DNA of 64,000 bases from a virus (taxonomy: Duplodnaviria; Heunggongvirae; Uroviricota; Caudoviricetes). The position numbers and the translations under genes were made by a program. Below the pieces are notes generated by a model. The model did no database searches and was not told the origin of the DNA. It saw only the letters and a program-made list of their open reading frames with translations. The stretch's first letter is position 1. Each line of letters begins with the position of its first letter. Positions 4,561-47,971 of this stretch are shown here, one piece after another. The stretch covers positions 169,787 to 233,786 of the IMG/VR virus record IMGVR_UViG_3300015214_000024; one strand, given 5' to 3'.

Positions 4561-4781
4561 ACATAGACGCTGATGCGTAGTATTCAGTTACTTCGATAGA
4601 ACGCTCAAAACGAATGGCCCTGGCCATTTATTGCACCAGGAGGTGAAAATCCTTCAATTCAAATCGATGGCGGGTAACTCCTAACCTGGTATTTGAAATG
4701 CTAACAGATAAAGGCTAGTTAGCAGGACGGTATTCCTTATTACCAAAGCTTCTGGATACGATATTAACACAGTGTTATGGT
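4561..4781 (+). ncRNA. Y-RNA-like ncRNA 1 (directly upstream of Ro60)
   Basis: GCGUA-GUAUUCAG-UUACUUCG 5' motif; CUGGAUAC complement; paired ends; TTGACT promoter at ~4526. Confidence 0.7.
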
Positions 4782-4892
4782 CAATTTATTGAGCCCTAAA
4801 GTTAAGGAGGTCACCTTTGAAGGACCGTCCCTGGCTTTAGGGACAATCTAGATCATATCGCTGTCCGATGAAGAAAAGAAGAGGAAAGAGAT

Positions 4893-6452
4893 ATGAAGTT
4901 CAATACACCAGGTCAAGCACCAATTCAATCACAAACGTCACCAAATACCGTTACTCACGAAGGCGCACCATCATATAAGTTTGATTCCATTATGGAACTT
5001 TATATGGCAGTTGCGACCACACTTATGGGTGAACCAAAGTTTTATGAATCAGGTGATGAACGCGCTAAGCGCATTCGCCGTTTGATTTCCAAAGCAGTCC
5101 AATCTGGTGAAATTGAAACTGTAGCAAAGTTGGCAGTTTACTGCCGTGAAACTTTGAACCTACGTTCAGTCCCAATCTTTATCACTGTATCTTTGGCGAA
5201 GGAAATTCGTGATCAAAAGATCGCCTGGGACGGCCTCCGCCGCCTCGCTAACCGGGTTATTCAACGTGCTGACGAAGTTCGCGAAATGTTCGCTGCTGCT
5301 GAGCAAATTTTCGGTGATAACCAGAACAACAAAGTGTTTAAGCGCATTGTTCCAAAGGCTCTCTTAAAGGGCATCGGTGATTCTTTGAACAAGTTTGATG
5401 AATACCAGATTGCCAAGTACAAGGGTGGTTCAGGCGCAGTGTCGTTCAAGGACGTTCTTCGAGTCATTCACCCAAAGCCAGCTAACGAATCAAAGGGAAT
5501 TCTTTTCGCTAAGATTATGAATGATTCTTTGGCCCCAGCTGACACTTGGGAAAATAAGATCTCAAACGAAGGCTCAACGTCTGAAAATTGGCAAGAAATT
5601 GCCAATGACTCAAAGGTTGGTATTATGGCAAAGCTTCGCAATTTGCGCAACTTTGTCAAGCACAAGGTTGATTTGACAAATGTCATCGCACATTTGACCA
5701 ACCCAGTCGCAGTAGCCAACAGCAAGCAATTGCCATTCCGTTGGTACACTGCGTATCGTGAACTTGGCGGTGAAAGTATGAAGCGCAATTGGTATTACCG
5801 CGCACCAACTCCAGAAGTAGTTGCTCCAGCAAACCTTTTGGGTGCTTTGGAAGATGCTTTTGATTTGTCAATTGCAAACTTGCCAGATTTGGGTGATGAT
5901 GTTTTGATTATCGCTGACCAGAGCGGTTCAATGCAGAGCCCAATCAGTCAAAAGAGCACAGTAACTTGTGCGGAAATCGCCGCTGTTTTGGCAGCCGGTG
6001 TTTGGTTCAACCAAACACGCTTAGGTAAGCGCGCTTTTGTGGCCGGCTTTGCTGATCGCGGTAAGGTCTACTCGTGGAGCAATCGTACATCAGCTTTGGC
6101 TGCGGCTAAAGAAATGATGAATACTGAGCTTGGCGGTTCTACTCGAATTGACACGGCTTGGCAGGCTGCTAAAGCTGCTGGTTTGAAACCATCAACTATT
6201 ATCGTCTTGAGCGATATGCAGATGACGGGCTCACATTATGAGCGTTTGATGGATCCAGAAGCTTATGGCTTGGCCAATGTCAACACTCTTAAATTGTCAG
6301 TTAACCTTCAAGGTTATGACAACACGCCATTGGCTGTTAATAACGGCTGGTACCAGCTAACTGGTTGGAGTGAAAAGATCTTCAGCTTCGTTGAAGCTAT
6401 GCGCAATCCAAGCGATGCGATAAATCAGATCAAGAATTCAATCCAACTTTAA
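4893..6452 (+). CDS. rsr: Ro60/TROVE-domain RNA-binding protein with vWA domain
   Basis: RADE, KFDEYQIAKY, LRNLRN, QLPFR motifs; DQSGSM MIDAS motif. Confidence 0.92.
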   Translation: MKFNTPGQAPIQSQTSPNTVTHEGAPSYKFDSIMELYMAVATTLMGEPKFYESGDERAKRIRRLISKAVQSGEIETVAKLAVYCRETLNLRSVPIFITVSLAKEIRDQKIAWDGLRRLANRVIQRADEVREMFAAAEQIFGDNQNNKVFKRIVPKALLKGIGDSLNKFDEYQIAKYKGGSGAVSFKDVLRVIHPKPANESKGILFAKIMNDSLAPADTWENKISNEGSTSENWQEIANDSKVGIMAKLRNLRNFVKHKVDLTNVIAHLTNPVAVANSKQLPFRWYTAYRELGGESMKRNWYYRAPTPEVVAPANLLGALEDAFDLSIANLPDLGDDVLIIADQSGSMQSPISQKSTVTCAEIAAVLAAGVWFNQTRLGKRAFVAGFADRGKVYSWSNRTSALAAAKEMMNTELGGSTRIDTAWQAAKAAGLKPSTIIVLSDMQMTGSHYERLMDPEAYGLANVNTLKLSVNLQGYDNTPLAVNNGWYQLTGWSEKIFSFVEAMRNPSDAINQIKNSIQL

Positions 6453-7159
6453 TGAGAAGGAAAAAGGGCGGGATGCTCAAAAATTGGTATATTCAGAAAG
6501 TTAAAAAGCCCGGCGCTGAAACATTGGATGGCTGGGAGAATTGGACTGAAAAAACCAAAAATGAGCATCCTGCCCTTTATTTTCTGTTTGAAACGTTACC
6601 GAGATTTTTTTCAGTAAAAAAACGCCGAATTTGGGATTTGAAATACCACCTCAAACAAAAATATTTTCACGGATATCACAATTTACGCCTTGATGTAAAA
6701 CGGTTTAAAGCACCGTATAACAAAGAAAGATTGCACAAATATTCGTGGATGGATGCAGATAGTCAAATGGAATTGTTTATGTTCCAAATCTTAGTCAACT
6801 TTATTGAAAAAGAAGTTGGATATAATCAATTTGTCGAAATTGCATATGATGACGAAAAAAACAATACTTCTGATCGATACAAAGAATTACTTGAGCTGTA
6901 TCATTGGTTTATTGACGACTATTGCGATCAATCATTTTCAGATTTGCTACACAAAGAATTGTACGATCAATTTCCAGATTTCAAATCATTACGGAAAACA
7001 TCGCTTTTTTCAAAACCAAAAACCCAGCGTGAACGTGACTATCATCAGGCAAATGCAATAATGATGTCTAAAATATCAGATCGTGATGAAATTCTTGAAG
7101 AACAAATGGGAAACAATTTAATTAAATTGATTAAATTGCGTGGCTGTATGTGGACATAA
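6452..7159 (+). CDS. Hypothetical protein
   Basis: 235-aa ORF coupled to the Ro60 stop. Confidence 0.7.
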   Translation: MRRKKGGMLKNWYIQKVKKPGAETLDGWENWTEKTKNEHPALYFLFETLPRFFSVKKRRIWDLKYHLKQKYFHGYHNLRLDVKRFKAPYNKERLHKYSWMDADSQMELFMFQILVNFIEKEVGYNQFVEIAYDDEKNNTSDRYKELLELYHWFIDDYCDQSFSDLLHKELYDQFPDFKSLRKTSLFSKPKTQRERDYHQANAIMMSKISDRDEILEEQMGNNLIKLIKLRGCMWT

Positions 7160-7220
7160 TTTGTTTGACAAAGAAAATAAACCAGTATAATATGCAATAT
7201 CAACCCAAATAGGAGATTAA

Positions 7221-7736
7221 ATGAAAACTCAAACTGTTAAAATGAATAGGGATATTAGGGAACAATCGGTTCGTCTTATTGACGAAAACGGTAACCAATT
7301 AGGAATTATGCCTACCAACACTGCTCTGAATCTTGCCGCCGAGCGAGAACTAGATTTGGTAGAAATTAATCCCGGTGAAATTCCAGTTTGTAAAATTATG
7401 GATTGGGGCAAAGAGCAGTATCGAAAGAAAAAGCTCAAGCACCAGCAGCAAATTAACAGCAAGAAACAAGAAACAAAAGAGCTGTATCTCCGACCAGTAA
7501 CTGGTGAACACGACATTCAGATTAAAGTGCGCCAGGCAATGAAGTTCTTAGAGCAAGGACACAAGGTTAAAATTGGTATGAAATTCCAAGGCCGAGAAAT
7601 GGCCCACCGCGATGTTGGCCAATCAGTTATGGAATCGATTATTGATCAATTTTCCAATCGGTCTATTGAACATATGCCATTCCGTAATAATCAAATCCAG
7701 ATCATCATTTCGCCCACACCAAGTAAGGCGAAATGA
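7221..7736 (+). CDS. infC: Translation initiation factor IF-3
   Basis: VRLIDENG..LDLVEI..PVCKIMDWGK..HD..K..FL..GHKVK..GREMAH. Confidence 0.95.
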   Translation: MKTQTVKMNRDIREQSVRLIDENGNQLGIMPTNTALNLAAERELDLVEINPGEIPVCKIMDWGKEQYRKKKLKHQQQINSKKQETKELYLRPVTGEHDIQIKVRQAMKFLEQGHKVKIGMKFQGREMAHRDVGQSVMESIIDQFSNRSIEHMPFRNNQIQIIISPTPSKAK

Positions 7737-7953
7737 ATAAAGATTATTCTATAAATTATAGGGATAAATCTTGCCGTATCCCACATTCAGGATATATGAT
7801 ATTAGTGGATCAATTGATGCTAAAGCCGGACGACATTATTGAGAAGACAATTGATCTTTTTATTTCGTCCGGTGTTGATTTTAGACAGATCCATCTCTAT
7901 GTTTCATACAGTAATGATGGAAATCATATTATTAATCTAATGGCATTATAACA

Positions 7954-8652
7954 ATGACTAATTTTGCATTTGATGTTGATGGTACTTTAACTGACAGCCG
8001 CCGGATAATTGATCCAGCATTCAAAGAATTCTTTTTAAATTTCACTAAAGAGAATACCGTATATCTAGTAACTGGTAGTGATTATCCAAAAACACTTGAA
8101 CAAGTTGGTGACGAAATACTTAATAGTGTTGAAGCTGTTTTTTGCTGTTGCGGTAATGCAGAATATCGAAAAGGCCAACTAATATCGCAAAGCGATTTTA
8201 AAGTCAATGACCAACTTCGATCGTTCTTCCTTGAAATGATGAACGAGAGCCAATTTTATCCCAAAACTGGAAACCATATTGAAGAACGAATCGGTATGGT
8301 TAATTTCAGTATTGTGGGTCGTAATGCAACTTTAGAGGACCGACAGGATTATATCATTTGGGATAAAATGACTTATGAGCGGGAAATAATTAAAAGCTGC
8401 ATTGAAGATCGGTTTGATGAACTTGAAGTTACCCTGGGTGGCGAAACTGGACTTGATATCTACCCAAAAGGAAAAGACAAGTCACAAGTTGCAGATTTGA
8501 TCAGTCCATTCATATTTTTCGGTGACCGTATTGAAGAAGGCGGTAATGATTTGACAATTGCCCAAAAAGCTACTATACACTATAATGTAAGCGGGTGGAA
8601 AGACACTTATTCTATTTTGAAAGAAAAATATACCAATGGCAAGTGTGAGTAA
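7954..8652 (+). CDS. HAD-family phosphomannomutase (eukaryote-type PMM)
   Basis: FDVDGTLT, HIEERIGMVNFS, FFGD..GGND. Confidence 0.85.
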   Translation: MTNFAFDVDGTLTDSRRIIDPAFKEFFLNFTKENTVYLVTGSDYPKTLEQVGDEILNSVEAVFCCCGNAEYRKGQLISQSDFKVNDQLRSFFLEMMNESQFYPKTGNHIEERIGMVNFSIVGRNATLEDRQDYIIWDKMTYEREIIKSCIEDRFDELEVTLGGETGLDIYPKGKDKSQVADLISPFIFFGDRIEEGGNDLTIAQKATIHYNVSGWKDTYSILKEKYTNGKCE

Positions 8653-8965
8653 AAAATTTAAAGTCAGTGGTGGAAGATACACTGGACAGGTTCATCCAGG
8701 TACTAATTCACCAGTGGTTGAATGGTTTGCGACTAATTTAGAAATGCCATCTAAGAGAGCAGCCATAAAGTGGATGAATGATAAACGCAAAGCGTATCAA
8801 GCCAGCGGTATAATGACGACTTTTTCGTATCACGAATCAATATCAAAATCATATGATATTGTAGAAGACGAAAAAGGTAAAATTAAATTATGGTGTTTCG
8901 GCCGCGGATAATATTATATCTAGCCACATTATAAATATTTGAGTATCATTTAAAGGAGTGAAAAG

Positions 8966-8986
8966 ATGACACGAACTACTAGCTGA
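8966..8986 (+). promoter_or_regulatory. Thr-rich leader peptide MTRTTS upstream of thrS
   Basis: AAGGAG RBS; ATG ACA CGA ACT ACT AGC TGA; hairpin at 8985-9020. Confidence 0.75.
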
Positions 8987-9058
8987 CCATCCAGCAAATC
9001 ACTAGGATTGTTGGATGGTCGTATTCAACATTTTCTAACGTGATTTAATAGGAGATCA

Positions 9059-10243
9059 GTGATGTTATACGATCATCGTAAAATTGGCCGAGAAATGGGC
9101 CTATTTCATATTCAAGAAGACGCCGCAGGCTCAGTATTTTGGCACCCACGCGGCTATGCACTTTACCGTAATATTGAAAATTATATTCGAATGAAACAAC
9201 TTCAGTATGGCTATGACGAAGTCAAAAGTCCACAACTGTATGATGTTTCACTTTGGAAAAAGAGTGGTCATTGGGATCACTTCAAGGAAAATATGTATTC
9301 TATTGAGGATTCAAATTTCTCCTTGAAACCTATGAATTGTCCAGGCCACATTCAAATCTTCAATTCTGACCTAATTTCTTATAAACAACTACCTTTGCGG
9401 CTGGCTGAATTTGGTTGTTGCCATCGTAATGAGCCATCTGGTGCATTACACGGTATAATGCGTGTCCGACAGTTTGTCCAAGATGACGCTCATATTTTTT
9501 GTATGGAAAACCAGATTCAATCAGAAGCATTAGCATTTTGTAAAATGCTTCAGGAAGTTTATGATGATTTTGGATTTAAAAATATCAAAGTAGCCTTAAG
9601 TCTGAGACCGGATGACCGTGCTGGCAATGACGCTGATTGGGATTTGGCCGAACAGGCATTAGAGGAAGCCATCAAGCAGGCCGGGTTTGAATACATTCTC
9701 CAGCCAGGTGAAGGTGCATTTTACGGTCCTAAATTGGAATTTGCACTAATCGACCAAGGCGGCCGTGAATGGCAATGTGGTACCATACAATTAGACTTTG
9801 TTTTGGCTGGACGACTTGGGGCAAAATATGTTGCTCAAGATGGTAGCCAAAAAGTGCCAGTTATTTTACACCGTGCAGTATTGGGTTCATTAGAACGATT
9901 TATTGGTATTCTTTTAGAGCATTATGGTAAGGATTTACCAGTATGGCTATTAAAAGACCAATTTGCTGTTTTGCCAATCAAGCCATCAGTCAATGATTAC
10001 GCTTGCAATGTGAAAGAAGCTGTGCTACAATTTGGCTTTAATGCAGAATTGGATTCTGATGATATTTCTCTTGGTGACAAGATTAAAAAATATTATCATA
10101 TTCCCAATCTCATTATTATCGGAGACCGTGAGGCTAAAAACGGCCAAGTTGTTTGGCGAAAACTTGATGGTTCACAGGAAGTTATTGATTTACATATTTT
10201 TTATGAAAAAGTGAAAAATGTGAAAAATCCGTTGAAAAAGTAA
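9059..10243 (+). CDS. thrS: Threonyl-tRNA synthetase lacking N-terminal editing domains
   Basis: DHRKIG, LKPMNCPGH, RVRQFVQDDAH, GEGAFYGPK, HRAVLGSLERF. Confidence 0.95.
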   Translation: MMLYDHRKIGREMGLFHIQEDAAGSVFWHPRGYALYRNIENYIRMKQLQYGYDEVKSPQLYDVSLWKKSGHWDHFKENMYSIEDSNFSLKPMNCPGHIQIFNSDLISYKQLPLRLAEFGCCHRNEPSGALHGIMRVRQFVQDDAHIFCMENQIQSEALAFCKMLQEVYDDFGFKNIKVALSLRPDDRAGNDADWDLAEQALEEAIKQAGFEYILQPGEGAFYGPKLEFALIDQGGREWQCGTIQLDFVLAGRLGAKYVAQDGSQKVPVILHRAVLGSLERFIGILLEHYGKDLPVWLLKDQFAVLPIKPSVNDYACNVKEAVLQFGFNAELDSDDISLGDKIKKYYHIPNLIIIGDREAKNGQVVWRKLDGSQEVIDLHIFYEKVKNVKNPLKK

Positions 10244-10244
10244 T

Positions 10245-10445
10245 TGACACGGACTAAATAGTGTAGTAAGTTTAGAACATAAGTTGAAACAAATTTTAAG
10301 GAAAGCAGTTACCATTATGTCACATTCAGTTTATCATTATGAATATGAGCGTGAATATCTCCGTCCAGGGGAGAGTTGGTAACGAGTATTTAAAATACTT
10401 CGACTGAACCGATTCAACCCTGGGACTGAAATCCCAGGGTTTTTT
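10245..10445 (+). promoter_or_regulatory. Attenuator 1: promoter, leader 10317-10382 (MSHSVYHYEYEREYLRPGESW), antiterminator and terminator
   Basis: TTGACA promoter; H/Y/E-rich ORF; AACCCTGGGA/TCCCAGGGTT-TTTT terminator. Confidence 0.85.
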
Positions 10446-10454
10446 CGTTTTTGT

Positions 10455-10531
10455 GGTGGCATAACGCAAACAGGTGAGCGGACTGACTGTGAATCAGTTG
10501 TTAGAGGGTTCAAGTCCCTTGTGTCACACCA
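10455..10531 (+). tRNA. tRNA-His(GUG), A73 type
   Basis: Cloverleaf, loop CUGUGAA, CCA. Confidence 0.9.
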
Positions 10532-10550
10532 AACATTATTGGAGTGAAAA

Positions 10551-10739
10551 ATGGAAGTATTTGTAATCAAAACTGAAGAAGTTGAACGAACGCTTAAATT
10601 TTTTACCCAATTGGGTTTAAATTTTGTTCAAGAACAACACGGTAATGGACCAATCCATTACGCTTGTGAACAAAATGGAGCAGTTTTTGAAATTTACCCT
10701 AAGGGTAAAACTGAAGGTTTTAAATTTATAGATATGTAA
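10551..10739 (+). CDS. Small VOC/glyoxalase-like protein
   Basis: FFTQLGL.F..EQHG.GP.HYA...VFEIYP. Confidence 0.65.
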   Translation: MEVFVIKTEEVERTLKFFTQLGLNFVQEQHGNGPIHYACEQNGAVFEIYPKGKTEGFKFIDM

Positions 10740-10744
10740 TTTTT

Positions 10745-10831
10745 GGGTGGTAAAAGTCAGTGGTTCTGATAGGCAGTCTGTAAAACTGCGCCTTTTCGGA
10801 GGGAGTAGTTCGATTCTACTACCACCCACCA
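10745..10831 (+). tRNA. tRNA-Tyr(GUA)
   Basis: Loop CUGUAAA, long V-arm, CCA. Confidence 0.85.
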
Positions 10832-10840
10832 AGAAATTAT

Positions 10841-10916
10841 GGTGACTGAAGTGTTGACGGATACACGCTTGGTTGTGAACCAGGAGTAACGGGCTCGATA
10901 CCCGTTGGTCACCCCA
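10841..10916 (+). tRNA. tRNA-His(GUG), G-1:C73 type
   Basis: Loop UUGUGAA, CCCA end. Confidence 0.9.
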
Positions 10917-10922
10917 AATTAT

Positions 10923-10998
10923 GCAACGGTCTTCTAATGGTTAGGAACCCTGACTTTCAATCAGGCCAATGCGAGTTCAAGTCTCGTCCGTTGCACCA
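10923..10998 (+). tRNA. tRNA-Glu(UUC)
   Basis: Loop CUUUCAA, CCA. Confidence 0.9.
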
Positions 10999-11157
10999 AA
11001 GCTTGTGCTTTGTGACCCTTCATACGCCCGAGGGTCAGAAAAATATCAGGATGCTGATACGGTATTATATACTAAAGGCATTGGGACCGCGCAGTACGCA
11101 CTACGGCTGAGTCATAAGGACTGAATAGTAGATGCTCGGTAGCGGCGAGCAAAATAT

Positions 11158-11229
11158 GGCGCGGAACGCTAGAGGCGGGCGGCTTGCCTTTCAAGCAAGT
11201 GTAAGCGGGTTCGATACCCGTCCGCGCTA
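11158..11229 (+). tRNA. tRNA-Glu(UUC)
   Basis: CUUGC-CUUUCAA-GCAAG arm. Confidence 0.8.
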
Positions 11230-11234
11230 CTACT

Positions 11235-11307
11235 GGCCCGGTAGTTTAGAGGTTAGAACGCGAGGTTTTCACCCTCGAGAGCGGGGTTCGATGTCCCCGT
11301 CGGGTCA
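11235..11307 (+). tRNA. tRNA-Glu(UUC)
   Basis: CGAGG-UUUUCAC-CCUCG arm. Confidence 0.85.
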
Positions 11308-11322
11308 CAAAAAGGAGTTTAT

Positions 11323-11550
11323 ATGAGTAACACTTTTAAGATTGAACGTGCTAGAAAACTTTACAAAAGCGATAAACCGAGTAAAGATATGAAGTTGACA
11401 GGCACTGGGGAAACTTGTATGAATGGTGATCCATTGTTTGTTAATAATGGTGGCCAACGTTGGGGCAACCAACGTAAAATGAGGGCAAAGATGAAAGTTG
11501 ATGCTCGTAAGTCAGAGAGAATGAAGAACAAGAAGATTGATTTGGAATAA
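11323..11550 (+). CDS. Small basic hypothetical protein
   Basis: AAGGAG RBS, K/R-rich ORF. Confidence 0.65.
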   Translation: MSNTFKIERARKLYKSDKPSKDMKLTGTGETCMNGDPLFVNNGGQRWGNQRKMRAKMKVDARKSERMKNKKIDLE

Positions 11551-11558
11551 AAGAATAT

Positions 11559-11647
11559 GGGTGAGCTGCTCAGATGGCGGATGGGCACCGGACTGTAAAT
11601 CCGGCACATAAGAAACATAGTAGGTTCGAATCCTACCTCACCCACCA
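11559..11647 (+). tRNA. tRNA-Tyr(GUA)
   Basis: CCGGA-CUGUAAA-UCCGG, CCA. Confidence 0.9.
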
Positions 11648-11665
11648 AAATGATGGAGATAATGC

Positions 11666-13382: not shown

Positions 13383-13476
13383 TATGAGTCAAAACTACTA
13401 AAGACGAATGGTAGAGTCAGCCCGCTCTTATACGGGATAATAGCTGGTTCGATTCCAGTTAGTAGTTTTGGCCATA
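13383..13476 (+). ncRNA. tRNA-like RNA with extended acceptor stem, no CCA
   Basis: D, anticodon and T arms closed by a ~17-bp stem. Confidence 0.6.
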
Positions 13477-13623: not shown

Positions 13624-13713
13624 AGCCAGGCGGCGGGAGTAGAACAGTGGTACTTCACCTCCATCCCAGGAGGAGATTGTAGGTTCGATTCCTACCTTGC
13701 CGCCCGTCCTGGC
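13624..13713 (+). ncRNA. tRNA-like RNA (Gly-like) with extended terminal stem
   Basis: CCUCC/GGAGG arm, GUAGGUUCGAUUCCUAC T-arm. Confidence 0.5.
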
Positions 13714-40622: not shown

Positions 40623-40696
40623 GGCTCTATGATATATGGGTATTATGCTTGACTGTCTATCAGGCAAACCGGGTTCGAGTCCCGGTAGAGTCGCCA
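40623..40696 (+). tRNA. tRNA-Asp(GUC)
   Basis: Loop CUGUCUA, GCCA. Confidence 0.88.
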
Positions 40697-40699
40697 ATT

Positions 40700-40775
40700 G
40701 CCCCAAAAGCTCAACTGGAAGAGCAGACCGCTTCTAACGGTAAGGGTGTGGGTTCGAGTCCTACTTGGGGCGCCA
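40700..40775 (+). tRNA. tRNA-Arg(UCU)
   Basis: Loop CUUCUAA. Confidence 0.9.
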
Positions 40776-41127
40776 ATTACTGTTTCGGAGGATAACGAAA
40801 TGACTATGCAGGAAGCAAGAAGCTAAAATTAGGAAAAAAGTTCAAAAAAATGGTTCCACTTTATAGGCATTTTGCTCGAGAGTGGGAAGAAGAACTTGAT
40901 TTTAGTGAAGAAATGCTGTATGAATTATACTTAAACGAGTCAAAAGGAATTGGCTCCATAAGTAGGACCAACGGTTTTGCTCACGGAAAGAAGATTTTAA
41001 GCATTACTGTTGAGATGTGGAAAGAGGATCTTTGGATAACATTGTTTCCGTGGGAATTATTCGAAGATCCTCAATTACCAGATTGGTGGATCATTAGTGT
41101 ATTCTCAATCGATAAAAAATAGGTGTT

Positions 41128-41532
41128 TTGATGGTTTGTTTAATTTTAGGTGATAGTATAGCAGTTGGTACCCACCAAGCATTGGCGTATCAGCATACTG
41201 AATGCATACGCCAAGCTAAAGTTGGCATTTCATCAAAAGTAATTGACAGGTATCCTGTAGTTGAAAACGCTGACACTGTTGTAATTTCTGCCGGATCAAA
41301 TGATGATCCAAGAAATAATAACGTTCCAACATTTGAACATATCAGGACAAAATATATTGGTAAAAAGGTAGTTTGGATACTTCCTAGAAACCGAACTTTA
41401 GCCAATCAAGTATTACAAGTTGCCAGAAAATATGGTGATGCTTATGTTGATGGTGTTGGGTTTAAGTCAAATGACAATTTACACCCAGCTAGTTATGCAA
41501 GTATGGCTCGGGCAGTCAAAACTAAAATGTAA
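41128..41532 (+). CDS. SGNH-hydrolase-like protein
   Basis: GDSI, GSND, DNLHP. Confidence 0.75.
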   Translation: MMVCLILGDSIAVGTHQALAYQHTECIRQAKVGISSKVIDRYPVVENADTVVISAGSNDDPRNNNVPTFEHIRTKYIGKKVVWILPRNRTLANQVLQVARKYGDAYVDGVGFKSNDNLHPASYASMARAVKTKM

Positions 41533-41599
41533 ATTTTCTAAAGAATTGATTCTTTAATTAGTATGGTGAAAGTTTGGCCTGAAAACAAACTTAGAAAAT

Positions 41600-41675
41600 G
41601 GGAAATTAGCTCATCTGGGAGAGCACTTGATTTGCATTCAAGAGGTGATCGGTTCGAGTCCGATATTCTCCACCA
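41600..41675 (+). tRNA. tRNA-Ala(UGC)
   Basis: Canonical. Confidence 0.92.
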
Positions 41676-41679
41676 TTAT

Positions 41680-41786
41680 GTATAGTAAGATCCCAGGGCG
41701 GGTCGACGGATAAATCCACAGTATTCATTTAATGAATATGCTAATGGTATCGTTTTAGGTTGGTTCGATCCCAGCACTATACACCA
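41680..41786 (+). ncRNA. Aberrant tRNA-like RNA
   Basis: GUAUAGU/ACUAUAC-ACCA acceptor and T-arm; non-canonical body. Confidence 0.5.
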
Positions 41787-41873
41787 ACCAAAGATGCGTA
41801 GGATGCAGATACTTCGATACTTTGTCTCGTACACAAACCAAAAAAAGACTGTATTCGCTTTTATCACTTTGGT
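41787..41873 (+). ncRNA. Y-RNA-like ncRNA 2 (CGU anticodon hairpin)
   Basis: Shared motif; UUUGU-CUCGUAC-ACAAA. Confidence 0.7.
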
Positions 41874-41880
41874 AATTATT

Positions 41881-42024
41881 TTGATCAGTAGCGTAGGATT
41901 GGGTTACTTCGATTGCAACTCGACCGATGGGGGTTCGATTCCCTCTTCCTCCACAAACTTTATGGGGGAATAGCTTAATGGACAAAGCGGTAAAATTTCT
42001 CGATTCGCCTTTATCTCTGATCAA
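41881..42024 (+). ncRNA. YrlA-like Y RNA 3 (GCA hairpin plus permuted tRNA domain)
   Basis: Shared motif; T-arm, then closed acceptor stem, then D-arm. Confidence 0.8.
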
Positions 42025-42032
42025 TCTTTTAT

Positions 42033-42135
42033 GGGGATGCTGGACGCGCCAGCCCTGGGAACCCGGGGTATCCCGCAATTTAAATTAATTTGCTTTGCGC
42101 GCGGCGAGACGGTTCAATTCCGTTTATCTCCACCA
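42033..42135 (+). ncRNA. Ala-identity (G3:U70) tRNA-like RNA
   Basis: GGGGAUG/UAUCUCC-ACCA, T-arm, atypical core. Confidence 0.55.
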
Positions 42136-42284
42136 AAACAAGAAAACGGCAGCGTAACTTAGTCTATACTAGTTAACATTGACTAAGCCATCGAGTGAAA
42201 GTAGTAGAGTTTGGTGTAGGCATACACTTAAAACTGATTTAGTCTCTACATTAATATTGAAGCGGTGATGCTGCCACCAATAAT

Positions 42285-42371
42285 GCCGAGAAAGCTGTGC
42301 GCGGTGCCAGCAGAATCCATAACAGACGATGGGGTGATCCTTAGTAGGCGGTTCGACTCCGCATCTCGGCA
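42285..42371 (+). ncRNA. Aberrant tRNA-like RNA
   Basis: GCCGAGA/UCUCGGC acceptor and T-arm. Confidence 0.5.
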
Positions 42372-42383
42372 CAAATATAATAT

Positions 42384-42455
42384 ACCCCTGCCCACTGGAT
42401 GGGACCTGACGCTACGAACGTCGGTGAGCTGGTTCGAGTCCGGCCAGGGGTGCCA
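42384..42455 (+). tRNA. tRNA-Arg(ACG)
   Basis: Loop CUACGAA. Confidence 0.85.
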
Positions 42456-42552
42456 GAATAATTTGAGTCTATATTCTCCCCGGGAAGTCCGTTTAAAACC
42501 CACAAGTCCGGCTAAGACAGGTGCTGGAGGTTCGGAATATAGACCAAACAAT

Positions 42553-42628
42553 GCCCTATTGGTGAAACTGGATATCACAGGACTTTGCGAAGGTCCAGTC
42601 TCAGGTTCGAGTCCTGAGTAGGGCGCCA
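42553..42628 (+). tRNA. tRNA-Arg(GCG)
   Basis: GGACU-UUGCGAA-GGUCC. Confidence 0.85.
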
Positions 42629-42639
42629 TTTTAAATTAT

Positions 42640-42727
42640 GGACACGTTGAGCAGTAGGTTGGCTCACCTGACTCTTAATCAGACGCGCGAAAGCGCCTTG
42701 TGGGTTCGAACCCCACCGTGTCCTCCA
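42640..42727 (+). tRNA. tRNA-Lys(CUU) with long V-arm
   Basis: Loop CUCUUAA; GCGC-GAAA-GCGC extra arm. Confidence 0.8.
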
Positions 42728-42977
42728 GTTTGCTTAGGCCTGACTGTAAAGAAGGCCGCCGCGTGGTTAACAAGAAAACGAATTTAAATTCGTCGAAAGT
42801 TGAAAAAGTTGCTAACAGATTTGCGGAGCAACTGAGCACCTGACTTTTAGGTACTCCCCTTTTATTTTGTTTTTCACCATTATAAAAGGCACAATTGGCA
42901 TACCAGGTAGGTTATTAATAACTCCAAAAGTGTCACCGGGTTACTATCTTCCCGGAAATTTAGGAGATAGATAGTTT

Positions 42978-43050
42978 GGGGCCTTAGCTCAGCTGGGAGA
43001 GCGCTTCGATGGCATTGAAGAGGTCAAGGGTTCGATCCCCTTAGGCTCCA
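42978..43050 (+). tRNA. tRNA-Ala(GGC)
   Basis: Loop AUGGCAU. Confidence 0.92.
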
Positions 43051-43059
43051 CAAAAATTT

Positions 43060-43142
43060 CGGTATGCGATGGCTGATTGGAGAAGCCTATGACCTGCGCG
43101 GTTATGATAGTGCGCACCTTGGGTTCGATTCCCACATACCGT
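43060..43142 (+). ncRNA. Aberrant tRNA-like RNA
   Basis: CGGUAUG/CAUACCG acceptor, D and T arms; ambiguous anticodon. Confidence 0.5.
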
Positions 43143-43152
43143 CCTAATTTGT

Positions 43153-43226
43153 TGCCCATTCCTCTAATGGTAAGAGAACTGGCTTTGAACCAGACAATTG
43201 AGGTTCGATCCCTCGATGGGCATCCA
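43153..43226 (+). tRNA. tRNA-Gln(UUG)
   Basis: Loop CUUUGAA. Confidence 0.9.
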
Positions 43227-43311
43227 AATCTTTGAGTAAGTCAAGCACGTGGTAAAGGATGGCGGTGAGCTGATGTGTAGCGTTGCCATCTACTTAACAA
43301 ACAACTTTTAT

Positions 43312-43383
43312 GCTAGTGTAGTTCAGTGGTAGAACGCTGCTCTCATAAGGCGGATGTCGCAAGTTCAATTCTTGCCACTAGCA
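43312..43383 (+). tRNA. tRNA-Met/Ile2(CAU)
   Basis: Loop CUCAUAA. Confidence 0.85.
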
Positions 43384-43468
43384 CAACAATATATTGAGCG
43401 GTCTAGAACTACGTAAAAGGGGTGGCATAGCTGAGTTCAGCGGCGCCCTTACCGCCAATTAAAAATAT

Positions 43469-43541
<73 letters not shown>

Positions 43542-43543
43542 CA

Positions 43544-43676
43544 TAATCCAGTAGCGTAGGATACAGATACTTCGGTAAAACTTTTGTCTCAGAAACAAAA
43601 CTAGTTGGTTCAAATCCAACAAATATTCCCCGAAAAGGAATATATGTTCTCTGTGTTCGGTCTTATCTCTGGATTA
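43544..43676 (+). ncRNA. Y-RNA-like ncRNA 4 (CAG anticodon hairpin plus T-arm)
   Basis: Shared motif; UUUUGU-CUCAGAA-ACAAAA; GUUGGUUCAAAUCCAAC. Confidence 0.75.
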
Positions 43677-43681
43677 CTTAT

Positions 43682-43754
43682 GGGGCCATAGCTCAGTTGG
43701 GAGAGCGACACACTTGCAATGTGTAGGTCGGGGGTTCGACTCCCCCTGGCTCCA
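43682..43754 (+). tRNA. tRNA-Ala(UGC)
   Basis: Canonical. Confidence 0.93.
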
Positions 43755-43755
43755 C

Positions 43756-43897
43756 AAAAACCAGCAGCGTAGAAATGAGTTACTTCGACTGTTAATCGAC
43801 TGGTTGTGGGTTCGAATCCCACTCTCTCCTCCACTATGGAGAGATAGCTCAATGGTAGAGCGGTAAATTTCTTGTTTCGATTTTTTCTCTGGTTTTT
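43756..43897 (+). ncRNA. YrlA-like Y RNA 5 (GUU hairpin plus permuted tRNA domain)
   Basis: Shared motif; UCGA-CUGUUAA-UCGA, T-arm, closed acceptor, D-arm. Confidence 0.8.
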
Positions 43898-43945
43898 CTT
43901 ATACTTAAATTCAATTCCATAAATAAAGATAAAAGGATATCTATT

Positions 43946-44299
43946 ATGCGCTGGAATGAAATTAACGAAGATTCGCCAAGACCGTTTGACAAACCAGCTA
44001 ACTATGCTGCGCCGAAGAGTGATGATGTAAATAAAACAGAAAACGACGAAGCTGGAATAATTTTTGGACATCAAGTGCCTAATTGGGCTATTGATGATGA
44101 TAAAGTTGCAGTTTTTGGGTCTAATTCAAATTTTATGCAAGCTCAAGTTTTTAAATCAAAGTCCGGAAAGTTTTTCGTAGATTTTGGTAAAGAAAGAACT
44201 CAGGAATTTAATTATGCTGGCCAGGTTGAAAATGCTCTAAGAAAGCTGCGAATAACCTCATTCGAGCGTATTGATTATTATAGACCATCGTCCTACTAA
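43946..44299 (+). CDS. Hypothetical protein (MRWNEI start)
   Basis: TAAATA upstream. Confidence 0.65.
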   Translation: MRWNEINEDSPRPFDKPANYAAPKSDDVNKTENDEAGIIFGHQVPNWAIDDDKVAVFGSNSNFMQAQVFKSKSGKFFVDFGKERTQEFNYAGQVENALRKLRITSFERIDYYRPSSY

Positions 44300-44314
44300 G
44301 AGTGAAATGGAACG

Positions 44315-44992
44315 ATGAGATTCAATGAATTCATAATTGAAAGCAAACAAATAGCATTAGCTAAAAAAGCATTCCAGCAACTTTCTCCCGAAGCTAAGAA
44401 AGCAATCGAGGACTGGGAGTCAGTTAATTGGATTGGTGGCAAGCTTGAGCAGCATTTTAAAGCTAATGATGAAATCGCTCAAGAAATAGAACGAGCTTTT
44501 AAGCCAGTTAGAGATTCAATTCCAGGTCAAACTTTGAAATTATATCGTGGTATAATTTATGATGATAATTTTAAAACCTGGGAAAACAAATATTTGGAAT
44601 CTTGGTCAAGCGATCGACGAGTTGCTGAACATTTTGCTGGACTCCGTAGTAGGCAGAACGGCCCTTCATCACTACATAAGGTCATATCTGAACCAGAAGT
44701 TGACACTCTTGTTAAGAAATATGAAAAAACTGGTTTTTTGAAATATGCTGGCAAATATTATGTACGCAACAAAGACTTACCTCAATATTACAACATTTAT
44801 GACAAGAACAAGCAATTTGTCACAGATGGCGATAATTTGAAAGCTGATCTTATGAGTGACCAAGAATGGGCTAAAAAATCAAACGATTCAAAACTTGCCA
44901 AAGGCGAAGTTATTGAAAAAGAAATTGATAAAAATAAAATAGTTTGGTTAACTAATAATTTGAATTCAAAAGAATACCTTGTTAGAAAGTAA
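44315..44992 (+). CDS. Putative ADP-ribosyltransferase (R-S-E type)
   Basis: LYRG ... ESWSSD..VA..FA ... KEYLV. Confidence 0.55.
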   Translation: MRFNEFIIESKQIALAKKAFQQLSPEAKKAIEDWESVNWIGGKLEQHFKANDEIAQEIERAFKPVRDSIPGQTLKLYRGIIYDDNFKTWENKYLESWSSDRRVAEHFAGLRSRQNGPSSLHKVISEPEVDTLVKKYEKTGFLKYAGKYYVRNKDLPQYYNIYDKNKQFVTDGDNLKADLMSDQEWAKKSNDSKLAKGEVIEKEIDKNKIVWLTNNLNSKEYLVRK

Positions 44993-44993
44993 T

Positions 44994-45125
44994 TTACAAG
45001 ATTCCAGTGACAAATTGAACAAGTGGAATCCACCAAGTAATTGCCGTGAACGGTGGTGGACACTTTAGTAAATTGGGTCTCACGACGCGGCAACGTCCCA
45101 GGTTCAAGTCCTGGCTGGTAAGCCA
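44994..45125 (+). ncRNA. Enlarged tRNA-like RNA
   Basis: T-arm CCAGGUUCAAGUCCUGG, GCCA end, weak acceptor. Confidence 0.4.
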
Positions 45126-45153
45126 TAAAACTTAGCAATCATCAATATCACAT

Positions 45154-45225
45154 ACCGAAGTAGCTCAATGGTAGAGCGCCGGCTTCCAATCCCGGGCGTT
45201 GTGGGTTCGATTCCTACCTTCGGTG
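45154..45225 (+). tRNA. tRNA-Trp(CCA)
   Basis: CCA anticodon; canonical D and T arms. Confidence 0.85.
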
Positions 45226-45240
45226 CAATAAATATATTTT

Positions 45241-45879
45241 ATGAAATATATTATCTATAAAATCACAAATAATTTGGATGGAAAAATTTACATCGGTAAA
45301 CATCAAACAATGAATATTGATGACGGCTATATGGGCTCTGGTAAATTAATCAGACGAGCGATCCAAAAGTATGGTGTTGAAAATTTCACTAAGGAAATTT
45401 TGTTTGTTTTGGATTCTGAAGAAGAGATGAATTTAAAAGAAGCAGAAATTGTCACGGAAGAATTTATAAGCAAAAATAATACTTATAATTTGTGTTCCGG
45501 AGGCAAAGGCGGCTTCTCATATATCAATAGAAATGGGCTTGGAGTTTCAGAAAATCAAAAAGAAGCTTCACGTAAATTTGCCTATAGAAATCTTGAAAAA
45601 ATTAATGCTCCGGAAAATATAGATTTGAAGCGGGCGGCGATGGCTAAAGTTAATCAAATTAGAATTGATCGAGGCATAAAACCATTTCTTGGCAAGAAAC
45701 ACTCAGAAGAAACTATTGCCAAAATGAAAGAATCCAGCAAGGGCAAAAGCACTGGTAGCAAAAATTCGCAATTTGGAACAATGTGGATTACTGATGGATC
45801 AGTGAACAAAAAAATAGATAGGGATTCTATAATCCCAACTGGATGGAAGCCGGGAAGATTGATGAAAAATATACCCTAA
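45241..45879 (+). CDS. GIY-YIG (Seg-like) homing endonuclease with NUMOD3
   Basis: IIYKITN..KIYIGKH, YMGSG, GKKHSEET. Confidence 0.9.
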   Translation: MKYIIYKITNNLDGKIYIGKHQTMNIDDGYMGSGKLIRRAIQKYGVENFTKEILFVLDSEEEMNLKEAEIVTEEFISKNNTYNLCSGGKGGFSYINRNGLGVSENQKEASRKFAYRNLEKINAPENIDLKRAAMAKVNQIRIDRGIKPFLGKKHSEETIAKMKESSKGKSTGSKNSQFGTMWITDGSVNKKIDRDSIIPTGWKPGRLMKNIP

Positions 45880-45944
45880 GTGTTACGGTAGCACGACGAG
45901 TTCCAACCTCGTTAGCGTGGGTTCGACTCCTACAGGGTATGCCA
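45871..45944 (+). tRNA. tRNA-Trp(CCA)
   Basis: ACGAG-UUCCAAC-CUCGU. Confidence 0.88.
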
Positions 45945-46016
45945 AATTTAAGGCTTGACTTTGGCCAACCATTAGTGTAAATCAAAAACCTACAACAAAA
46001 TAGTTTGGAGGTTTAA

Positions 46017-46523
46017 ATGAGCACTGCTCTTGCATTTATTACTGGTTTGGCAACTGCCTACCTTTTTACCTGGCCAGCGTTGGCCATTCTTTTCGTCATT
46101 GGTTTGATTTTTGAACACAATCACCGCAGTGGTTGGGCGATTTTCTTTGGTCTTGTGGCAATGTTTGCTGGATATTTTTATTTCGGCCTCACCTTGTCGA
46201 CGGTACTACTTTATGGTGCTGGCTATTTGGGTATTGGTTTAGTTTGGAGTTTCTGGCGTTACGGGCGTTATGTTCGTTCAGAAGTTGCTCGAATTAAGGC
46301 TGATACTTATATTAAGGAAAGCGAATATGCTAGTTATGCTAAGGGCTTGTCCCCAGCTAAGCATATCGGTAAGATCACATCGTGGATTATCATTTGGCCA
46401 CTAAGTGTTGCAAATATGCTTGTTGGTGACATTGTGGACTTTGTCCAGTATGGTGTGACTAAGCTTTTCAAGATGGTTTATGTCAAGATCTATACCAGTT
46501 TGGTTGCTGATCTTATTAAGTGA
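46017..46523 (+). CDS. Membrane protein
   Basis: Multiple TM segments, GGAGG RBS. Confidence 0.75.
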   Translation: MSTALAFITGLATAYLFTWPALAILFVIGLIFEHNHRSGWAIFFGLVAMFAGYFYFGLTLSTVLLYGAGYLGIGLVWSFWRYGRYVRSEVARIKADTYIKESEYASYAKGLSPAKHIGKITSWIIIWPLSVANMLVGDIVDFVQYGVTKLFKMVYVKIYTSLVADLIK

Positions 46524-46553
46524 TACGTGATGGGGCTTAGGCCCCATCAAAAT

Positions 46554-46630
46554 GGTTCGTTAGTCGAGTTGGTTAAGACGCTTGCCTGTCACGCAAGAGA
46601 TCACGGGTTCAAGTCCCGTACGGATCGCCA
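46554..46630 (+). tRNA. tRNA-Asp(GUC)
   Basis: Canonical. Confidence 0.95.
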
Positions 46631-47270
46631 TTAAATTGTCCCCGTATGACGCAGAATATGTTTGAAAGGGAGAATGAGATGATTGAAGAAATTCAAAAGC
46701 TTAAAAATACTAAGGCAGGTTGCCTTGACCCAATGCAGAATTTGATCGCTTGTGAAGTATTTGAACATTCAACCCTTATGGGAGTAGAAGAACTTTACCA
46801 ACAGATGTATCAAGAATATTGGGATGACGCAAATCAATGCGTTGAGGATGAATATGAGGAAGCTATGAAAAATGGTGAAACTTATTACCATCCAGAGTGG
46901 CATAGGTTTGAAATTGGTGAGGTAACTCGCCAAGACGCTATGAAATCTGCGTACCAACAAGGATGGATTAGGTTAATCTATAATCCACTTGAGCAGAAGC
47001 TGTATGCTGAAAGTGTTCAGAAAATTTTAAATTCTCGAAAGGGATATTTAGAATTTATTGCTGAATGTCTGGACAAAGATTGCACTTTGCAACTGTCCGC
47101 TCAAAAATAATTTACCTATAGGGCTGATGAAACTGTATGAAAAATAACAGCATTATCCCTCTTAGTAGTCGCACGGTGCATTACCGCTCCGCCTGCTTGG
47201 GTGTAACCAAGGCAGGAATTATATTCCCCGGCGTGTATGTGATGGTCTCCGCTTCTAGTAGGTAAACGTT

Positions 47271-47341
47271 GGGGCATCTAACGGGTTAGACTCTGCGCTT
47301 GCACCGCGGAAGAAGGGGTTCGACTCCCCTATGCTCCACCA
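47271..47341 (+). tRNA. tRNA-Ala(UGC), atypical D-arm
   Basis: Loop CUUGCAC, G3:U70, CCA. Confidence 0.8.
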
Positions 47342-47896
47342 TTATGAAAGGATCGTTATGAACATTTATAAAATGTTGGATGAGTTCCCGTATGGGATTG
47401 TGGTCCTTGAGGGGGATTATGTTAAGCATATTTGTCTTTATCCTTCAATGCCCACACAAGCTGATGCTGAAGGATTGTACGATGAACTTCAAAAAGATCC
47501 GGAGCACGGAATGATTGGTGAAGATTTATCCAAGATGAATTTTTGTCCAGCCTCTGGCGAATTATTAAAAGAAGCTATAAGGGCATTTTCAAGTGAAAGC
47601 TATGAATAATAAGGATTTTGTAGAATATACCACTGATCCAGATTTATGGCCAGATCTTGTTGAGATCAGTGATATTTTAGTACGCTTCCCATTTTATATG
47701 AAATGTGATCAGTTCTCAGATGCGGTGTTATTGGCTGAACAATTTGACCGATATTTTGAAGACCAAGATTTGTTTATGGTGTGCAGACAATATGATAATT
47801 TTGTTTTCTTTGAGTCAGAAGAAGCAAGGGCTATTGCGGCAATAATTAAATAAAAGTAGTTGACAGACTATAAATAACATAGTAGATTATACAAAT

Positions 47897-47971
47897 AACC
47901 AGCAGCGTAAAATACGGTTACTTCGTTTATTTGGAAAACACACCGTACTGTATTTGACTTTATCTCTGGTT
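47897..47971 (+). ncRNA. Y-RNA-like ncRNA 6 (minimal)
   Basis: Shared motif; own TTGACA promoter at ~47860. Confidence 0.7.

Follow-up and report, generated by a model that had tools for sequence, protein, structure and literature searches.

Y RNAs of the YrlA class are bound by Ro60 proteins and carry a domain resembling tRNA, the partner and purpose of which have been open since 2014. We analyse here a set of related elements in a phage genome, the 455,147-bp viral record IMGVR_UViG_3300015214_000024 of IMG/VR (complete according to CheckV), and in particular in bases 169787-233786 of this record, a stretch of 64,000 nucleotides (nt) referred to below as the window, which contains a Ro60 gene and six of these elements, a seventh lying outside it. 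It is very likely that the elements are Ro60-type Y RNAs of the YrlA class, and the sequences of their inner hairpins argue, with somewhat less certainty, that these hairpins are selected mimics of anticodon loops.

The YrlA RNAs (Rfam RF02553; Chen et al. 2014, PMC4201824; Wang et al. 2018, bioRxiv 10.1101/312249) have a terminal stem, a CGAA-like 5' motif (the presumed Rsr site), the motif YUAY, and mimics of the T arm and D arm that contain tRNA-invariant nucleotides and flank a closed acceptor-like stem; they are encoded on the Ro60 strand, usually adjoining the gene (within ~4 kb according to Chen et al. 2014), and in several copies per genome. Chen et al., who reported YrlA-like RNAs in 22 phages, CcrColossus included, drew one stem-loop as 'V' (variable arm), with YUAY beginning the V loop, and called it less conserved. 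Wang et al. stated that YrlA 'lacks the anticodon loop', and in the crystal structure of Salmonella YrlA (bioRxiv 10.1101/312249) the Y stem takes the place of the anticodon stem, conservation being concentrated in the D and T stems. A model of dimeric-tRNA origin (Sim and Wolin 2018), as quoted in the same preprint, has one tRNA contribute the T arm and the next one the D arm, the acceptor forming across the spacer. The acceptor stem of Mycobacterium smegmatis YrlA has 7 bp; in vivo this RNA undergoes RNase P cleavage and acquires CCA, both halves remaining on Rsr, and YrlA has been proposed as a competitive inhibitor of an anticodon nuclease (Hughes 2020, PMC7790460). Two further systems are more distant: Yrn1 of Deinococcus radiodurans is Ro60-bound, tethers PNPase and shows a T-arm-like loop together with a drawable 'anticodon arm' with a 5-bp stem, and phiRo60 of phage phiLo (PMC12135203) binds phage-encoded stem-bulge-stem Y-like RNAs with a CGAA motif and forms a complex with host PNPase in vitro.

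The elements of the present phage share with YrlA the terminal stem, the motif YUAY, the coding strand of Ro60 and the occurrence in several copies, and some of them also the T arm, closed acceptor-like stem and D arm. They differ from it in that the V region of the phage copies forms a 5-bp arm with a 7-nt loop, an anticodon signature and a class-I-type variable loop, in that the Ro60 stem joins the phage copies at position 26/27 rather than replacing the anticodon loop, and in number and place, the phage having seven copies of which six lie in tRNA arrays at a distance of 37-67 kb from Ro60. The hairpin corresponds to the V stem-loop of YrlA and, because it has already been drawn as such, the structure itself is known; what appears to be new is to read V as an anticodon arm that the Ro60 stem joins at 26/27, an interpretation of which we found no prior statement in a literature survey that took in part of the reviews. 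The acceptor stem has the same 7 bp as that of M. smegmatis YrlA, copies 5 and 7 already encoding the CCA, and, relative to the dimeric-tRNA model as quoted, the first tRNA has kept its anticodon arm, variable loop and CCA in the phage copies. Yrn1 differs by its 6-nt loop, its opposite orientation and the lack of an evident full D arm, having evolved independently according to Chen et al., and phiLo differs in that only two RNAs (Yrl1 and Yrl2) are presented, the consulted passages of that paper describing no tRNA-like or anticodon feature in them.

Architecture of the phage elements

The motif GCGTA-N8/9-WTACTTCG has six exact matches on the + strand of the window (4575, 41796, 41891, 43554, 43767 and 47905) and none in 100 shuffles, in agreement with a preliminary description, made from the sequence without database searches, of six copies sharing a scaffold. 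A seventh copy of the motif occurs at genome position C1:241603, 8 kb downstream of the window. All seven copies share the strand of Ro60, and a relaxed motif scan with structure checks yielded no credible copy beyond the seven. The copies in the window and the Ro60 gene are the following:

4566-4776, + strand: Y RNA copy 1, long form with a 164-nt inner domain and no tRNA-like module (motif at 4575; 28.1 bits over its full length with the covariance model R1, described below)
41787-41873, + strand: Y RNA copy 2, short form; hairpin 41821-41837 with a 5-bp stem and the loop CUCGUAC (CGU) (motif and pairing)
41882-42023, + strand: Y RNA copy 3, full tRNA mimic (Rfam YrlA 25.9 bits; covariation)
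43545-43675, + strand: Y RNA copy 4, without D arm (Rfam tRNA 29.3 bits at 43566-43628; R1 45.5 bits)
43758-43895, + strand: Y RNA copy 5, full tRNA mimic (Rfam YrlA 40.5 bits, E 4e-8 on a 150-nt stretch; covariation)
47896-47972, + strand: Y RNA copy 6, short form; hairpin 47925-47939 with a 4-bp stem and the loop AUUUGGA (UUG) (R1 35.2 bits; the predicted fold has the hairpin)
4893..6452, + strand: gene for Ro60 (TROVE + vWA), 519 amino acids (Pfam TROVE E 4e-17; PHROG 850 'RNA-binding protein' E 2e-46)

Each copy opens with a 7-nt strand of helix P1, the spacer NA, GCGUA, an 8-nt strand of helix P2 and WUAC-UUCG; after a variable inside of 30-164 nt follow the P2 complement, a pyrimidine-rich linker of 10-11 nt started by G, and the P1 complement. 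The helices vary in sequence among the copies and yet pair, at 8/8 positions of P2 and at 6-7/7 of P1 in the six window copies (the P1 pairing, counted by script, carries a selection bias), so that the compensatory changes noted in the preliminary description are borne out. In copy 1, P1 pairs 4566-4572 with 4770-4776 and P2 pairs 4580-4587 with 4752-4759; the 3' end of this copy lies 116 nt before the Ro60 start codon (4893), directly upstream of the gene as had been said.

The inside of the RNAs holds varying amounts of tRNA-like structure, with a T arm, a closed acceptor-like stem and a D arm in copies 3, 5 and 7, a T arm and acceptor-like stem only in copy 4, and none of these in copies 1, 2 and 6. 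Copy 3 comprises an anticodon arm at 41908-41924 (loop UUGCAAC, triplet GCA), a T arm at 41929-41945, a 7-bp acceptor with an 11-nt closing loop and a D arm. Likewise, copy 5 has an anticodon arm at 43784-43800 (CUGUUAA, GUU), the variable loop UGGUU, a T arm at 43806-43822, a 7-bp acceptor followed in the closing loop by U-CCA, and a D arm. Copy 4 combines a mini-hairpin, UAC-UUCG-GUA, with an anticodon arm at 43582-43600 (6-bp stem, CUCAGAA, CAG), a T arm at 43604-43620 and a 7-bp closed acceptor-like hairpin, all of these hairpins being contained in its minimum-energy fold (z -2.6). The short copies 2 and 6 retain the hairpin alone, and copy 7 is without a closed anticodon hairpin but possesses a 7-bp acceptor followed by A-CCA.

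Two structural readings were tried and rejected. The sequence UACUUCG is not a universal cUUCGg hairpin, which forms only where GUA directly follows (copy 4 and element 7 of CcrColossus); in most of the tRNA-like copies UUCG is part of the anticodon stem (positions 27-30), and pairing of UAC with a GUA after the D arm is possible. Nor is copy 1 a display of an anticodon, the loop CUCAAAA having ~2 flanking pairs, remaining unfolded in the prediction and not being kept in the closest relative.

Copies 2-7, on the Ro60 strand and 37-67 kb from Ro60, lie within tRNA arrays, and copy 1 lies at Ro60, far from the arrays. Copies 2-5 and 7 abut tRNA genes: copy 2 is directly 3' of a tRNA-like element (41677-41786), copy 4 begins 2 nt past a tRNA-Lys (43469-43542) and copy 5 begins 2 nt past a tRNA-Ala (43682-43755). 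Copy 6 ends 2 nt ahead of a tRNA-Gly at 47975.

Relation to YrlA and association with Ro60

Against the Rfam YrlA model, copies 5, 7 and 3 align over their full length (40.5, 37.6 and 25.9 bits), and their T arm, closed acceptor and D arm are in register with it. The terminal stem is present in every copy, YUAY (as UUAC or AUAC) in 7/7, and the 5' motif GCGUAG stands one base from the published GNCGAAN0-1G; the same position is occupied by GCGAA or GCGAC in related actinophage copies and by YCGUA in bacterial copies, where the full motif reads YCGUA-N8-NUAC-UUCG. The Rfam tRNA model (RF00005) gives partial matches only, covering the anticodon arm, T arm and acceptor strand, at 29.3 (copy 4), 28.9 (copy 5) and 23.9 bits (copy 3), and no copy forms an open-ended cloverleaf scoring >29 bits, the acceptor being loop-closed and ARAGORN making no calls.

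Some of these data speak against membership of the class. None of the seven copies reaches the YrlA gathering cut-off of 69 bits, 4/7 have no YrlA match (copy 1 at E <= 10; copies 2, 4 and 6 over their own span), and GCGUA departs from the published GNCGAA. A scan of the window at Rfam gathering level returned tRNAs only, with no Rfam match around copy 1. The YrlA-like RNAs beside the Ro60 of cultured phages also score just 30-50 bits.

Of the two Infernal checks proposed in the preliminary description, the search with the Rfam model remained below threshold; the other was a new covariance model. The covariation set consisted of 13 full copies from 10 contigs and five helices, the T, acceptor and D stems among them (P1 and the UAC/GUA helix were left out because of MAFFT misalignment). 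In this set 94.4% of cells pair, compared with 71.6% in shuffles (0/500 reach the observed value) and 36-52% with slid partners, and 19 pairs are doubly changed. The model R1, built from these 13 copies, recovers the copies that were not in training, copy 7 at 88.9 bits and copies 4, 6 and 1 at the scores listed above. When IMG/VR was scanned for an RNA motif of 14 specified bases, giving 200 loci, Ro60 was found in 21/26 loci with a structure-validated element and in 18/174 without one (p = 2e-13). Conversely, in a viral sample of 79 loci picked by Ro60 protein alone (27-65% identity), R1 has 132 matches (E <= 1e-5) in 63/79 loci, 1-7 per locus, all but one on the Ro60 strand and mostly directly adjoining the gene. 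In 80 bacterial Ro60 loci, mostly of Bacteroidota and Clostridia, there are at least 150 matches in at least 68/80 loci. The scaffold thereby recurs next to Ro60 genes with identities of only 24-36%. Taken together, the sub-threshold YrlA matches, the scaffold beside Ro60 in many loci and the covariation-supported fold make the identity of these RNAs as Y RNAs very likely, as the preliminary description had maintained.

The family includes cultured systems. Caulobacter phage CcrColossus has at least 7 tandem elements upstream of the TROVE gene gp139 (JX100810 ~107050-109600; contig L102 2800-3920), and there are five elements in Xanthomonas phage Usaquen and three in Streptomyces phage Quantum. 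The annotated tRNA-Gln of CcrColossus (109217-109284) lies within an element with the loop AUCUGGA and is therefore probably a Y RNA and not a tRNA. Bacterial loci L305-L384 (for example of Flavobacterium, Hymenobacter, Pedobacter and Ruminococcus metagenome-assembled genomes) contain arrays of up to ~5 Y RNAs just upstream or downstream of Ro60. Separately, Bacteroides phage crAss001 (L105 4624-4767) has a 144-nt stretch scoring 46.6 bits with the tRNA model, in a 900-nt unannotated gap after the TROVE gene gp96, which may be a tRNA-derived Y-like RNA of a different scaffold.

The hairpins as probable mimics of anticodon loops

In the window, copies 2-6 have a 7-nt loop with U33 and a purine at position 37 on stems of 4-6 bp, a signature that copies 1 and 7 do not show. 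Hence the anticodon loops listed in the preliminary description stand as written for copies 2-6, and that of copy 1 does not. A broader sample was selected by Ro60 protein, independently of the RNA motif, and contained 107 unique RNAs, 98 with a T arm. In 59 of these 98 a closed 5-bp, 7-nt-loop hairpin is present 3-6 nt upstream of the T arm, giving 56 unique hairpins, in which U33 occurs 52 times, a purine at 37 (R37) 53 times and A38 47 times, positions 34-36 spanning 31 triplets. Furthermore, G37 tracks G36 among the 56 (two-by-two counts [[11,2],[1,42]], p = 6e-9); by the same rule the 69 tRNAs of the phage itself have G37 in 5/14 cases with G36 and 1/53 without. The bacterial hairpins (n=61; bacterial figures for hairpins, triplets and CCA ends are, here and below, among the matches listed) have U33 in 51 and R37 in 49, with p = 2e-5 for the association of G36 with G37. 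The hairpin is present in ~60% of phage and ~50% of bacterial copies, and so is not special to this phage.

The loops also resemble particular tRNAs. Among 29 Y-RNA loops, 14 equal a real tRNA loop of the pooled loci, compared with 9.2 +/- 1.6 when the triplets are permuted (1/2000 reaches 14), and the exact matches include window copies 3, 4 and 5. The loop of copy 5 is identical to all four tRNA-Asn loops of the phage; that of copy 3 equals real tRNA-Cys loops of the pooled phage tRNA set and is 1 base off the phage's own tRNA-Cys loops. No triplet is repeated within any viral array, as far as hairpins were parsed, and one bacterial locus repeats GUU. The commonest triplets, in phages and bacteria alike, are GUU (Asn) and UUU (Lys), and the GUU copy is frequently the one nearest to Ro60 in viral loci. 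Asn-GUU and Lys-UUU tRNAs are classic targets of anticodon nucleases. The arm UUCGA-CUGUUAA-UCGAG/C is common to CcrColossus, Usaquen, one IMG/VR contig and window copy 5, and the remainder of the RNA differs. In these counts related sequences are non-independent.

The preliminary description held that the copies display different anticodon stem-loops and named the lack of conservation of such loops in homologs as evidence that would count against it. The loops of most copies are copy-specific and truly anticodon-like, and since the homologs keep the signature (U33 in 52/56 and R37 in 53/56 in phages) that test fails to overturn the claim.

As a caveat to the likeness, A32 is found in 10/25, 13/56 and 10/61 (bacterial) unique Y-RNA loops and is rare in the pooled real tRNA loops; it occurs mostly with the frame AU-NNG-GA.

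The inner module and tRNA gene junctions

After UAC, the full copies continue with a hairpin made of two complementary 5-nt strands, the first usually UUCGN, around a 7-nt loop, and then with 4-5 nt that are often AGGUC-like and the T arm. Then follow the 7-nt 3' strand of the acceptor, a closing loop (which starts N-CCA in copies 5 and 7), the 5' strand of the acceptor, UA and the D arm, and lastly one nucleotide, then in many cases GUA(A), which is able to pair with the conserved UAC, a short linker and the P2 complement. Read in this order, the inner module is organised like one tRNA without its 5' third, to which the 5' third of a second tRNA is joined. In accordance with this, junctions of adjacent tRNA genes in the window match R1 positions 27-107, at 11183-11261 (37 bits), 48722-48806, 40648-40726 and 53072-53147, as the dimeric-tRNA origin model, in its quoted form, would predict. 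The sequence NCCA follows the 7-nt acceptor strand in 23/98 phage copies and 11/140 bacterial ones, the chance expectation being ~1.6%. Because so much of the first tRNA is retained (anticodon arm, variable loop and CCA) and real junctions match the model, the copies look like preserved intermediates of the proposed descent of Y RNAs from tRNA dimers.

With no nucleotide before the hairpin and 4-5 nt after it, the spacing is the one that an anticodon arm and a class I variable loop have together, and not that of a class II variable arm. A second architecture is seen in copy 7 and in L055:5526-5670, where the spacing is kept and the 3' strand pairs with a segment past the D arm, so that these RNAs correspond to canonical YrlA, with the Ro60 stem continuing the anticodon stem.

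In the circularly permuted tRNA genes of Cyanidioschyzon merolae and the split tRNAs of Nanoarchaeum, too, the 3' half is encoded ahead of the 5' half and there is a leader-trailer helix. Unlike these, the phage Y RNAs are without a bulge-helix-bulge, many are without acceptor or D arm, and there is no sign that they mature into tRNAs.

Possible functions

One question then is what such RNAs would do. The overall explanation that they are YrlA-class Y RNAs which mimic tRNA junctions and present anticodons in an isoacceptor-specific manner has, in our estimate, about an even chance of being correct. The constant handle, composed of P1, the internal loop of GCGUA and the pyrimidine-rich strand, P2 and UAC, would by homology be the part that binds Ro60. 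The Y RNAs would be co-transcribed with the flanking tRNAs, freed by the processing of tRNA ends and then bound by the phage Ro60; co-transcription and release by tRNA trimming are suggested by the abutting tRNA genes, with copies 1 and 6 possessing promoter-like sites (see below). Copies with a 7-bp acceptor and NCCA may undergo RNase P cutting like M. smegmatis YrlA. For an RNase P RNA of the phage itself, which would bear on such processing, an Rfam search of window positions 61900-62600 gave no match at E <= 1. Each of copies 2-6 would mimic the anticodon loop of a different tRNA species (CGU, GCA, CAG, GUU and UUG, respectively), and the ribonucleoprotein (RNP) would thereby offer isoacceptor-specific look-alikes of tRNA to proteins that read anticodon loops. 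Foremost among such targets may be the anticodon nucleases of host defence or of competitor toxins, which would be occupied or competed with. Ro60 would shield the RNA and could also link it with an exonuclease of 3'-5' polarity, host PNPase for example.

The role as a nuclease decoy, which the preliminary description had suggested, is plausible and, although less likely than not, is the use that we favour; it extends the published proposal that YrlA competes with an anticodon nuclease (PMC7790460). More speculatively, the Ro60 RNPs of phages and bacteria might be a programmable tRNA-protection device, the isoacceptor-specific mimics of which, chiefly of the Asn-GUU and Lys-UUU types, bind, inhibit or report on anticodon-loop nucleases. 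If this is true, the seven-copy set of the phage would be a counter-defence complementing its 69 tRNA genes. Published descriptions of YrlA deny an anticodon loop, and an anticodon arm in more than half of the phage copies and about half of the bacterial ones would turn a vague 'tRNA mimic' into a testable one: which readers of the anticodon are engaged, whether tRNA-cleaving defences or toxins are blunted, and whether the RNAs are modified like tRNA. The same arrays are available in cultured systems, namely CcrColossus, Usaquen and strains of Flavobacterium and Hymenobacter.

A number of observations count against the mimicry of anticodons or against its proposed use. Approximately 40-50% of copies, copy 7 included, are without a closed anticodon arm. 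Folding of single sequences is only weakly better than that of shuffles (z -0.8 to -2.7), and the minimum-energy fold does not contain the anticodon stems (4 bp) of copies 3 and 5. The loops fall into two lineages (AU-NNG-GA and CU-NNN-AA), the shared ancestry of which could partly inflate the association between positions 36 and 37. Neither the acceptor stems nor the discriminator bases agree with the identity of the anticodon on display, copy 5 having U73; tRNA-Asn has G73. A decoy acting stoichiometrically would face the very large pool of tRNA in the cell as its competitor, and bacteria have the family as commonly as phages do, so that its role is not purely one of anti-defence. RtcB was not found in the phage genome, and no consistent protein neighbour of the Y RNAs besides Ro60 was found in the related loci.

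The alternative that fares best, less likely than not but in our estimate nearly as probable as the decoy role, is that the RNAs are generic tethers of Ro60, in which the hairpin is the inherited structural 'V' arm, kept for folding or for modification enzymes, its triplet having no reading function, and which recruit an effector that reads the tRNA elbow, or PNPase. This would agree with the placing of the stem-loop as a less conserved variable arm by Chen et al. (2014), with the position of the Y stem and the conservation of the D and T stems in the Salmonella structure, with the missing closed hairpin in 40-50% of copies, and with copy 7 and L055:5526-5670, which keep the spacing and pair the 3' strand past the D arm instead; moreover, colinearity with tRNA junctions by itself accounts for the presence of an anticodon arm. 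However, a structural arm needs no U33, R37 or A38, no linkage of G36 with G37 and no frames matched to the triplet, and it does not call for the absence of repeated anticodons among the parsed hairpins of a viral array. The identical GUU arm recurs in phages with a Ro60 <= ~30% identical to that of the window, in RNAs whose P1, P2 and acceptor differ, and the spacing of the hairpin (0 nt before, 4-5 nt after, often AGGUC) fits an anticodon arm with a class I loop.

It is quite improbable, in comparison, that the elements are two-piece CCA-ended tRNA-like molecules, generated by an RNase P cut in the acceptor loop that frees the CCA, and then aminoacylated or entering ribosomes, for example by docking at codons left unread after tRNA depletion and bringing Ro60 and an exonuclease with them. 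The 7-bp acceptors of copies 5 and 7, followed by U-CCA and A-CCA, the excess of NCCA after the acceptor strand in phage and bacterial copies over chance, the processing of M. smegmatis YrlA into CCA-tailed halves on Rsr and the CCA-adding enzyme of the phage are what this explanation would lead one to expect, and the first and third of these also render doubtful the 'non-chargeable' nature attributed to the RNAs in the preliminary description. Yet the majority of copies either lack CCA or have an acceptor closed by a tetraloop, the short copies have no acceptor stem at all, the discriminator and acceptor bases do not fit the identity of the anticodon, and a helix bound by Ro60 at 26/27 would probably clash with EF-Tu or the ribosome. 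That the elements are merely non-functional, as decayed tRNA genes or recombination repeats among the 56-59 tRNA genes whose junctions the inner part resembles, can be practically dismissed in view of a non-tRNA handle that is conserved with compensatory changes across phages and bacteria and tied to Ro60, and in view of copy 1, which stands at the Ro60 gene far from the arrays.

Genomic setting

The window contains 56 tRNA genes according to ARAGORN and 59 according to Rfam, every one on the + strand, and the whole genome 69. Further genes of the window include those for IF3, two aminoacyl-tRNA synthetases, a 2H phosphoesterase and the TROVE+vWA protein, and the phage also encodes, besides the CCA-adding enzyme, at least 3 RNA ligases of the Rnl2 type. 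Around copies 1 and 6 the following features may be distinguished:

3986..4507, + strand: gene for a 2H (LigT-like) phosphoesterase, just 5' of Y RNA copy 1, context only (Pfam 2_5_RNA_ligase2 E 1e-10)
4526..4554, + strand: promoter-like site TTGACT-17-TATATT, 11 nt before copy 1 (consensus scan 10/12, a pattern match only)
47860..47888, + strand: promoter-like site TTGACA-17-TAGATT, 7 nt before copy 6 (consensus scan 10/12, a pattern match only)

The 2H phosphoesterase is kept in one related contig only and there is not adjacent to the Y RNA. The closest solved relative of the window Ro60 is phiRo60 of Thermus phage phiLo (9KOP/9L5Y, E 6e-33, residues 5-510). Megablast of the Ro60 region against GenBank phages gave no match, and Ro60 proteins 76-91% identical to that of the window exist. 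Related Ro60 loci were retrieved with an alignment of homologs, a query with the single protein retrieving none. The closest viral relative among these is the 359-kb IMG/VR contig L224, with a Ro60 of 65% identity; its match spans residues 241-515 only, and a long-form Y RNA (L224:7043-7267) is located ~2.7 kb upstream of it. The partial match together with this distance suggests an insertion in or before the gene.

Several unusual tRNA-like sequences accompany the arrays. Directly upstream of copy 2, at 41677-41789, is an element of ~110 nt, not called by ARAGORN, in which ACCA comes after an acceptor stem of 8 bp and which also has a T arm, a short D-like hairpin and a long extra region; one of its hairpin loops is readable as AUUUAAU (UUA, an ochre-reading triplet). 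The sequence at 47271-47341, likewise without an ARAGORN call, is tRNA-shaped, with a loop of UGC type and an ACCA end, and scores 30.1 bits as tRNA and 31.9 bits as tmRNA. Two tRNAs that ARAGORN does call, 13393-13468 and 13631-13705, have abnormal anticodons, the four-base 'ctta' and the two-base 'cc', and weak Rfam scores (38.7 and 32.9 bits). Outside the window, at G000:C1:15281-15358 and 165512-165586, are two tRNAs with the anticodon CUA, labelled Pyl by ARAGORN, which would read UAG.

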